64,000 nucleotides of DNA from a virus (taxonomy: Duplodnaviria > Caudoviricetes): the IMG/VR virus record IMGVR_UViG_3300021964_010723. The stretch is one strand, 5' to 3'. Shown piece after piece: positions 37,754 to 38,814 of this stretch. Every line of letters starts with the position of its first letter. Position 1 is the first letter of the stretch. The notes beneath the pieces are model-generated. The model was not told the origin of the DNA. It did no database searches and saw only the letters and a program-made list of their open reading frames with translations. A program made the position numbers and the translations under genes.

Positions 37754-38596
37754 ATGGCAAGCTTTCTCAATCAATTTACTCGACAGCCCAAGATATTTGG
37801 AACTTTACCTAGTCAAGGAATCACATATAATCAAGAAGTTATACAAGACATGAATGTAACTAGTGTTCCTATTTTTGGAATGAACACCATGGATGAATTA
37901 ATTTTAAAAACACCTGATGCTTTATTTTCAGGAGAAGCTACAGCTCTAGTTGTTAAAAGCTGCATTCCGTCTATTTTAGATCCTTGGAAAATTTTAACTG
38001 CTGATATGGATTACTTATTAATTGGTGTAAGAATTGCAACATATGGAGATAGATTACCTATTACAACTACATGTCCTAAATGCAAAGCGGATACTAAGAG
38101 TGATCTACATTTACCAAGTCTGTTAGACAATTATACGTCCCAAGAACCTGTAGAAAAAATTACATTTAATGGTTTAGATTTAGATATTGTTCCATTAACT
38201 TATGAAATCTCAACTAAAATATCAAAAGACAACTATCAAATGCAAAGAACACTGTTGCATATTGATCAACAAAAAGATTTATCAGAGGAACAAAAAGATC
38301 TACAAAAACAAACAATCTACAAAAGTTTATCTATGTTAAATTTTGAGACTGTCTTACATCATGTTTATAGTATATCTGACGGACAAAATGTAGAGACAGA
38401 CAAAGAAGAAATTTTTGCTTTCGTCAAAAATTCTGAGATAGGTTTATATAAGTTAATAGAAGATGCTACGAATATAATTTCTAAAAAGTTTGCCCTACCA
38501 AAAGTTGACGTTGCCTGCTCAAGCGAAACATGCAATCATGTTTACAAAAGCGAAACTTCTTTTGATTATTCAAATTTTTTCGAAGTCAGATCTTAA
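37754..38596 (+). CDS. Baseplate hub / tail assembly chaperone (gp26-like, ~280 aa; start revised to MASFLNQF)
   Basis: GGAG SD before ATG 37754. DELILKTPDALFSG, DYLLIGVRIATYG, CPKC and C..C motifs; ends ...SNFFEVRS. Confidence 0.75.
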   Translation: MASFLNQFTRQPKIFGTLPSQGITYNQEVIQDMNVTSVPIFGMNTMDELILKTPDALFSGEATALVVKSCIPSILDPWKILTADMDYLLIGVRIATYGDRLPITTTCPKCKADTKSDLHLPSLLDNYTSQEPVEKITFNGLDLDIVPLTYEISTKISKDNYQMQRTLLHIDQQKDLSEEQKDLQKQTIYKSLSMLNFETVLHHVYSISDGQNVETDKEEIFAFVKNSEIGLYKLIEDATNIISKKFALPKVDVACSSETCNHVYKSETSFDYSNFFEVRS

Positions 38597-38814
38597 AGCT
38601 CGATAGATCTGGCGTAGAACAATTAATTACTAAGCATGAGCAAGATCAAAAAACTATAAAATATAATATGTATAAGATTGGTTGGTACATGCGCGGAAGT
38701 TTAAGCTATACTGATTTAATGCGAAATATATCGGTTGACGACAAAGAAATAATGAATACAATTATAAAAGAAAACATTGATCTAAGTGTTCAAGCAAAGA
38801 TGCCTCTGCTGTAA
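38575..38814 (+). CDS. -1 frame extension of the gp26-like gene (gp51-like / GT-type segment), not in the ORF track
   Basis: Open -1 frame FRSQILKLDRSGVEQLITKHEQDQKTIKYNMYKIGWYMRGSLSY...AKMPLL*; slippery T-TTT-TTC plus a 3' stem; no SD for its internal ATGs. Confidence 0.7.
   Translation, partial: FFRSQILKLDRSGVEQLITKHEQDQKTIKYNMYKIGWYMRGSLSYTDLMRNISVDDKEIMNTIIKENIDLSVQAKMPLL

Follow-up and report, generated by a model that had tools for sequence, protein, structure and literature searches.

In long-tailed phages, the tail assembly chaperone genes reportedly carry a conserved -1 frameshift, which Xu, Hendrix and Duda are said to have described in 2004 and of which lambda gpG/gpGT is an example. 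The E/E+E' pair of phage P2 slips at T_TTT_TTG. To our knowledge, the T4 superfamily is the major long-tailed group in which no tail-chaperone frameshift has been described. In T4, gp26 and gp51 are listed as hub assembly chaperones, and gp51, the function of which is unknown, is needed for assembly and absent from the particle (Leiman et al. 2010, PMC3004832). The gp51 of cyanophages and of vibriophage KVP40 was noted to be without the first ~200 aa (Sullivan et al. 2010, PMC3037559). In KVP40, the annotation of KVP40.0327, a CDS of 55 aa that comes right behind gene 26, records similarity to the C-terminal ~40 aa of T4 gp51. Neither the KVP40 record nor Sullivan et al. 2010 proposes a frameshift, and a full-text literature search did not find a report of the slip described here.

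The present study suggests that a gp26-family gene of an uncultured phage very probably gives rise to a short and a long hub chaperone by -1 programmed ribosomal frameshifting. The long protein has yet to be seen directly, there being no peptide, reporter or ribosome-profiling data for it. The original prediction had proposed a canonical -1 programmed frameshift in this gp26-like gene, and every comparative test that we ran supports the proposal. The window, i.e., the whole 64,000-nucleotide stretch of DNA that was analyzed, has a GC content of 34% and comes from a giant, uncultured myovirus that is a distant relative of T4. Among the genes of the window are homologues of the T4 portal gp20, prohead protease gp21 and major head protein gp23, together with T4-type genes for gp46/47, a gp5-like hub protein and the late sigma factor gp55. 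A blastn search of the locus against 50,697 phage records gave zero matches, and its relatives were found at the protein level only. The features of the locus are as follows.

37754..38596, plus strand: ORF1, a gp26-family baseplate-hub assembly protein of 280 aa (PF12322, phrog_150)
38575..38581, plus strand: slippery heptamer T_TTT_TTC, whose codons TTT TTC encode Phe275 and Phe276, in X_XXY_YYZ phase
38585..38613, plus strand: putative stimulatory hairpin, with arms 38585-38593 and 38605-38613 and loop 38594-38604
38581..38814, plus strand: extension in the -1 frame, 77 codons followed by TAA (38812-38814)

ORF1 belongs to the T4_baseplate family PF12322 by the criterion of a score over the gathering threshold of 24.5 bits: its match to the Pfam HMM scores 34.5 bits and takes in positions 38-218 of the 219 in the profile. 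A further match is to phrog_150 'baseplate hub' (2.8e-9). A GGAG (37746-37749) lies 4 nt upstream of its ATG. The nearest named phages by tblastn, at 23-30% identity, are 121Q, GAP32, CBB, K64-1, PA5oct, Atu_ph07, Phosso and XaC1. The protein search added more than 120 uncultured relatives of ~275-290 aa, save two outliers, one of which (399 aa) aligns with the family across its first half only. ORF1 has two conserved CxxC pairs, and C107, C110, C255, C260, F275 and F276 are invariant in the family. Its last codons are AAT TTT TTC GAA GTC AGA TCT TAA, with the 0-frame TAA at 38594-38596. These codons bear out the predicted phase of the heptamer in the gp26-like frame.

The short and long proteins would arise because some ribosomes slip back one base at TTTTTTC before the hairpin. 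Most ribosomes would read TTT TTC, add four more codons and stop, giving the 280-aa short form. Some would stall at the hairpin, 3-5 nt past the heptamer, where the two tRNA-Phe would re-pair one base back, from T TTT TTC to TTT TTT C. The slipped ribosomes would then read 77 codons in the -1 frame and make a long form with an extra helical C-terminal domain. This predicted product of 353 aa and about 41 kDa consists of ORF1 residues 1-276 plus 77 residues, the junction being ...SNFF followed by RSQILK, and its predicted tryptic junction peptide is ...SETSFDYSNFFR, as against ...SETSFDYSNFFEVR for the 0 frame. In cyanophages, the corresponding junction peptide would be ...GLASFFR. The two forms would share 276 residues and would be the single-gene equivalent of T4 gp26 plus gp51. 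Their ratio would be set by the efficiency of the slip, which is so far only inferred, and not by two promoters or ribosome-binding sites. That the extra domain has a binding partner of its own is an inference too.

The heptamer alone means little, because the window has 161 in-phase slippery-type heptamers, which are common at 34% GC. Only this site and one ordinary gene overlap in the window have both a heptamer no more than 20 codons from the stop and a -1 frame that runs on for 50 codons or more. The decisive evidence against chance is conservation in relatives. For the jumbo clade, 80 IMG/VR loci were fetched, 83 loci had a complete gene end, and 59 representatives remained below 70% identity. 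In every one of these 83 complete gene ends, the in-phase TTTTTTC lay at the conserved D(Y/Q)S(N/D/S)FF motif. Both TTTTTTC and the open -1 frame, whose conservation the original prediction had proposed as a check, were kept in 59/59 non-redundant relatives. The heptamer carried 2.0 bits at each of its seven positions in these relatives, synonymous sites included, as compared with 0.1-0.5 bits at neighboring third-codon positions. Phe codons elsewhere in the same genes were TTT in 546 cases versus TTC in 121, and all four codon combinations occur at their other Phe-Phe pairs.

The same T6 homopolymer could also be a site of transcriptional slippage. If RNA polymerase added one U there, exactly ...NFFR... 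and the same fused protein would result, and sequence analysis alone cannot distinguish this from slippage by the ribosome; that the slip is ribosomal is an inference. Still, 59/59 diverged lineages have exactly T6 and then C, and so do cyanophages, KVP40 and other groups. To slip efficiently, a polymerase needs ~8-9 or more identical bases in a row, and selection for such slippage would favor runs that are longer and vary in length. The position of the run relative to the 0-frame codons never changes either, which matters for tRNA re-pairing and not for a polymerase. Furthermore, a covarying hairpin at a spacing of 5-6 nt, as described below, is a classical stimulator of ribosomal slippage. 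We therefore regard slippage by the polymerase as very unlikely.

A second in-phase heptamer, A_AAT_TTT at 38572, was considered and set aside as a part of the signal, because only ~25/59 relatives have it. Upstream of the heptamer, an SD-like stimulator is generally lacking (3/59 relatives have one). Elsewhere in the window, a 127-aa ORF (25544-25927, minus strand) with two in-phase A_AAT_TTA heptamers 9-12 codons before its stop is followed by a 656-aa ORF (23574-25544, minus strand) in the -1 frame with a 1-nt overlap. Since the downstream ORF has its own ATG, this pair is probably an ordinary gene overlap.

The putative hairpin of the window comprises 9 bp, including one G.U, around a perfect 7-bp core (38587-93 / 38605-11), and its 11-nt loop contains the 0-frame TAA (38594-38596). 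The predicted stem, 5 nt after the heptamer, extendable to 9 bp and with the TAA in its loop, was recovered by folding, at -14 kcal/mol (z = -3.05), and a fold this good was reached by 1 of 200 shuffles. The spacer from the heptamer is 5 nt to the perfect core and 3 nt to the 9-bp stem, the latter being shorter than the usual 5-9 nt, so that 3-5 nt stands at the short end of the range. In the 59 relatives, the 60 nt after the heptamer had a mean z of -1.77 against shuffles, with 39% below -2. Six control offsets in the same genes gave mean z values of -0.05 to -0.38; structure is enriched at the heptamer offset only. In two subclades, a stem of 11 bp begins 6 nt past the heptamer, and each subclade has 4 pairs with compensatory changes. 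The spacing of the 5' arm is constant (the stem starts 5-6 nt after the heptamer), whereas the distance of the 3' arm differs among clades. About one-third of the relatives have no convincing hairpin at the canonical spacing. Relative to its closest relative, which is 9.5% diverged overall, the window has zero substitutions in the 41 nt that hold the heptamer and hairpin (38575-38615).

The -1 frame of the window is closed up to a stop at 38563-38565, four codons before the heptamer, and is open thereafter to 38814. It had been predicted to stay open across the site for ~79 codons without an SD of its own; we count 77 codons after the slip and find no usable start, the first ATG being codon 30, without an SD. 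In relatives, the -1 frame from the heptamer spans 75-77 codons and aligns gap-free, whereas the 0-frame tail past the heptamer ranges from 1 to 14 codons among the 59. R1, W35, R38 and G39 are invariant in an alignment of 53 extensions. Between the window and its closest relative (90.5% nucleotide identity), the extension has 16-18 substitutions, of which 11-13 are silent in the -1 frame, versus just 1-2 in either other frame. By this comparison, both frames are under purifying selection.

Gene callers and GenBank treat the extension as a separate small CDS, and the downstream ORF could be translated alone through coupling, reinitiation or a non-canonical start, the more so as an ATG overlaps the stop in a few phages (Atu_ph07, Phosso and 121Q). 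However, conservation and purifying selection reach back to the slip site, 29-36 codons before the first ATG in most lineages. The first -1 ATG of relatives is mostly codon 36, within the conserved WYMRG motif; in only 4/59 relatives does an ATG lie 5 codons or fewer from the slip site, in every case without an SD, and the -1 frame of PA5oct has no ATG whatsoever. The original prediction would have been refuted by homologues with an independent SD/ATG and without a slippery site, and the 59 relatives include none. Two separate genes would also leave unexplained the invariance of the heptamer at synonymous sites and the constant distance from the heptamer to the -1 stop despite a wandering 0-frame stop. 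In addition, the 'gp51' of cyanophages and KVP40 would be left without the ~200 N-terminal residues present in T4. Separate translation of the downstream ORF is, in our judgment, highly improbable.

Homopolymer runs are error-prone in some sequencing chemistries, and an intact gene might have been split by such an error, or the locus might be a decaying pseudogene. Against this, the same T6 run and frame relation recur in more than 160 independent assemblies and in finished isolate genomes obtained by differing methods. No in-frame fused homologue was seen among the 120 matches listed (154-490 aa), and purifying selection on both frames also speaks against decay. The chance of an artefact or of decay is practically negligible, and we go on with a programmed -1 frameshift by the ribosome as the preferred reading.

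The cassette extends beyond the jumbo clade of the window. T_TTT_TTC followed by a -1 ORF of 57-75 codons is found in cyanophage S-WAM1, vibriophage KVP40, Cronobacter phage LPCS28 and Agrobacterium phage OLIVR5, and the cassette is present in 75/79 cyanophage-type IMG/VR loci and also in 121Q, GAP32, CBB, PA5oct, Atu_ph07 and Phosso. Every cassette record searched (S-WAM1, OLIVR5, LPCS28, KVP40, 121Q, PA5oct and Atu_ph07) contains one PF12322 copy, whereas the whole phage records of T4, Acinetobacter 3014 and Aeromonas avDM7 contain two copies and no slip site. The premise that T4 makes gp26 and gp51 as separate proteins holds in this respect: T4 has two PF12322 genes, and gp51 is a gp26-like domain with an extension-like tail. 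Specifically, gp51 matches PF12322 over residues 1-201 and has a 48-aa in-frame tail. T4 gp26 ends in ...KEFFELL, coded as G TTC TTT G, which is not slippery, and gene 25 lies directly after it.

The gp51 tail starts at F200, directly past the ..FF end of the PF12322 domain, and the extension attaches at the same position. From its junction on, the extension of S-WAM1 can be aligned by BLASTP with gp51 200-244 (9e-6), and a profile of cyanophage extensions matches a profile of gp51 tails over 51 columns (Prob 95.7, E 1e-8). Besides, the extensions of S-WAM1 (7e-31) and LPCS28 (1e-10) match phrog_634 'baseplate hub assembly catalyst'. By these alignments, the -1 extension of the cyanophage, KVP40 and LPCS28 type is demonstrably homologous to the gp51 tail. 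In cyanophage/KVP40-type phages, the predicted long product is therefore built of the same domains as gp51, and the short product is built like gp26.

For the window itself, the parallel with T4 is one of family and layout. ORF1 belongs to PF12322 like its T4 counterparts, the short form, whose end lies at the same ..FF.. position, would correspond to gp26, and the long form would have the gp51 architecture of a PF12322 domain with a C-terminal tail from that position. Unlike the window, where one gene would provide both forms, T4 has two divergently transcribed genes and no slip site. The tails also differ in length, 77 aa in the jumbo clade of the window versus 48 aa in T4 gp51. The 77-aa tails of the window type, from marine as well as Rak2/Atu_ph07-like phages, clearly belong to a single family (hhalign 99.4%, E 5e-22). 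A Pfam scan of the window extension gave no family match; it matches phrog_7277 weakly and does not match phrog_634, and the 121Q-type extension is phrog_18291. When the jumbo-type extension was compared by hhalign with T4 gp51, the gp51-tail profile and the cyanophage-tail profile, no comparison was significant (jumbo-type versus gp51-type tail, P 0.004-0.005, probability 7-9%), and because of this we do not claim homology to the gp51 tail for the jumbo clade. The two types of tail are co-linear on a Y..L..M.P.ER motif and have a similar helical layout in the AF2 model, so that the evidence for their homology is only suggestive.

In a maximum-likelihood tree of PF12322, gp26 and gp51 of the two-gene phages form one clade (97/90), which splits into a gp26 and a gp51 clade. 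All frameshifting genes lie across that branch, with KVP40 and LPCS28 nearest. The tree has 46 rows after removal of identical sequences, the frameshifting genes were only sampled, and it is unrooted. A T4-seeded profile was used to collect the PF12322 set; an HMM built from the jumbo clade only, on a small local set, failed to retrieve T4 gp26 and gp51. If the jumbo phages and cyanophages are taken as outgroups, the tree is read most simply as one duplication that replaced the frameshift. Since the tree is unrooted, an ancestral frameshift and a derived duplication are an inference.

The cassette resembles lambda G/GT in that a -1 slip at X_XXY_YYZ would occur near the 3' end of a tail-morphogenesis chaperone gene, giving a short and a C-terminally extended form with a common N-terminal domain. 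The heptamer of the window is nearly that of P2. Unlike lambda G/GT, ORF1 is not immediately upstream of, or co-oriented with, a recognized tape-measure gene (its neighbors are divergent and convergent), and its family acts on the baseplate hub. No TAC family membership was found, as the Pfam scan of ORF1 and the extension gave only PF12322, for ORF1. The AF2 models of ORF1 (pLDDT 90.1) and of the extension (a helical domain, pLDDT 90.7) are confident. Against the PDB, Foldseek gave no match for ORF1 (best E 0.8), VIA-align gave only a generic helical hairpin (Z up to 8), and searching PDB sequences with profiles of ORF1 and of the extension gave nothing meaningful. Modeling and profile searching of both parts, suggested at the outset as a check, thus yielded good models and no informative PDB fold or profile match. 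Because no solved structure is related to the confident ORF1 model, the resemblance to lambda G/GT amounts to functional analogy only. The proposed link between the T4 hub chaperones and the G/GT system stands as such an analogy, possibly a convergence, and does not stand as kinship, there being no TAC match and no shared fold found. Against the BFVD, Foldseek matched the extension model only to unnamed phage proteins of 55-94 aa (best E 9e-3, TM 0.55-0.81), which are probably the same ORFs called as orphans, although their identity is not established.

Taken together, we somewhat favor the reading that the -1 frameshift is ancestral for the two hub chaperones of the T4 superfamily, comprising jumbo Rak2/Atu_ph07-like phages, cyanomyoviruses, KVP40-like phages and other Straboviridae. 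According to this, gp26 and gp51 would have arisen once by duplication, one copy losing the extension and the other fixing it in frame, and the logic of lambda G/GT would have been invented independently in an unrelated fold. If so, a fixed ratio of short to long chaperone would be a general need of long tails built from a hub or tape measure. If gp26 and gp51 correspond to the short and long products of a gene that in most relatives is single and frameshifting, they could be understood as a common domain with a C-terminal adaptor on a minority of the molecules, a model open to testing in T4, KVP40 or cyanophages. The T4 superfamily, with a different protein family, would also come under the rule that tail chaperones have a conserved frameshift.

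The 'short gp51' proteins of cyanomyoviruses and KVP40 are -1 extensions of the same cassette type as that of the window. They are annotated as free-standing small proteins, and the window extension is in a different sequence cluster. The frameshift cassette would explain the puzzling 'short gp51' of the 2003-2010 marine-phage annotations. It would also correct the annotation of hundreds of phage genomes, in which the extension is now a 48-69 aa orphan or is missed; GenBank and gene callers give a separate CDS of this size as 'hypothetical protein' or as a short 'gp51'. The annotations at OLIVR5 L090:1420-1560, KVP40 L201:813-980 and L202:2415-2561 begin at an internal ATG of the -1 extension. 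Partial calls of the extension are labeled 'baseplate hub assembly catalyst' or 48-aa hypothetical protein, and in the PA5oct and S-WAM1 records the region is left unannotated.

The surroundings of the cassette in the window include the following genes.

35159..37699, minus strand: divergent neighbor of 846 aa (phrog_14121), in synteny with Rak2-like jumbo phages
38820-39851, minus strand: convergent ORF of 343 aa, with a lysine-rich low-complexity stretch and hydrophobic segments
43747-44532: late sigma factor of the gp55 type

The 846-aa neighbor is the homologue of a virion structural protein that is sited between the portal and the gp26-like gene in Rak2-like jumbo phages, and its counterpart CBB_251 was detected in virions by MS. 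It had been taken for a tape-measure-like gene lying adjacent and divergent; the divergent adjacency is correct, and its identity as a tape measure is not shown, as BLASTP found no significant similarity to T4 tape measure gp29. The gene order is shared with jumbo relatives, namely portal, a structural protein of 720-850 aa, and then the divergent gp26-like gene and small ORF. The 343-aa convergent ORF has no match to any family and is kept beside the cassette in the closest relatives. In translation, the 846-aa protein has near-tandem peptide repeats, KTDP.VPQI.DA.ATQING...TNDLE.(I/V)NEAEE, at about residues 620-720. Upstream of the gp26-like gene, within the 54 nt that separate it from its divergent neighbor, TATAAAAT at 37711-37718 resembles the T4 late promoter TATAAATA. 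Three very large ORFs flank the structural module: 1-8070 (minus strand, 2689 aa), 8108-13549 (minus strand, 1813 aa) and 54086-64000 (plus strand), the last of which runs past the window end, so that its length of more than 3305 aa is a lower bound.
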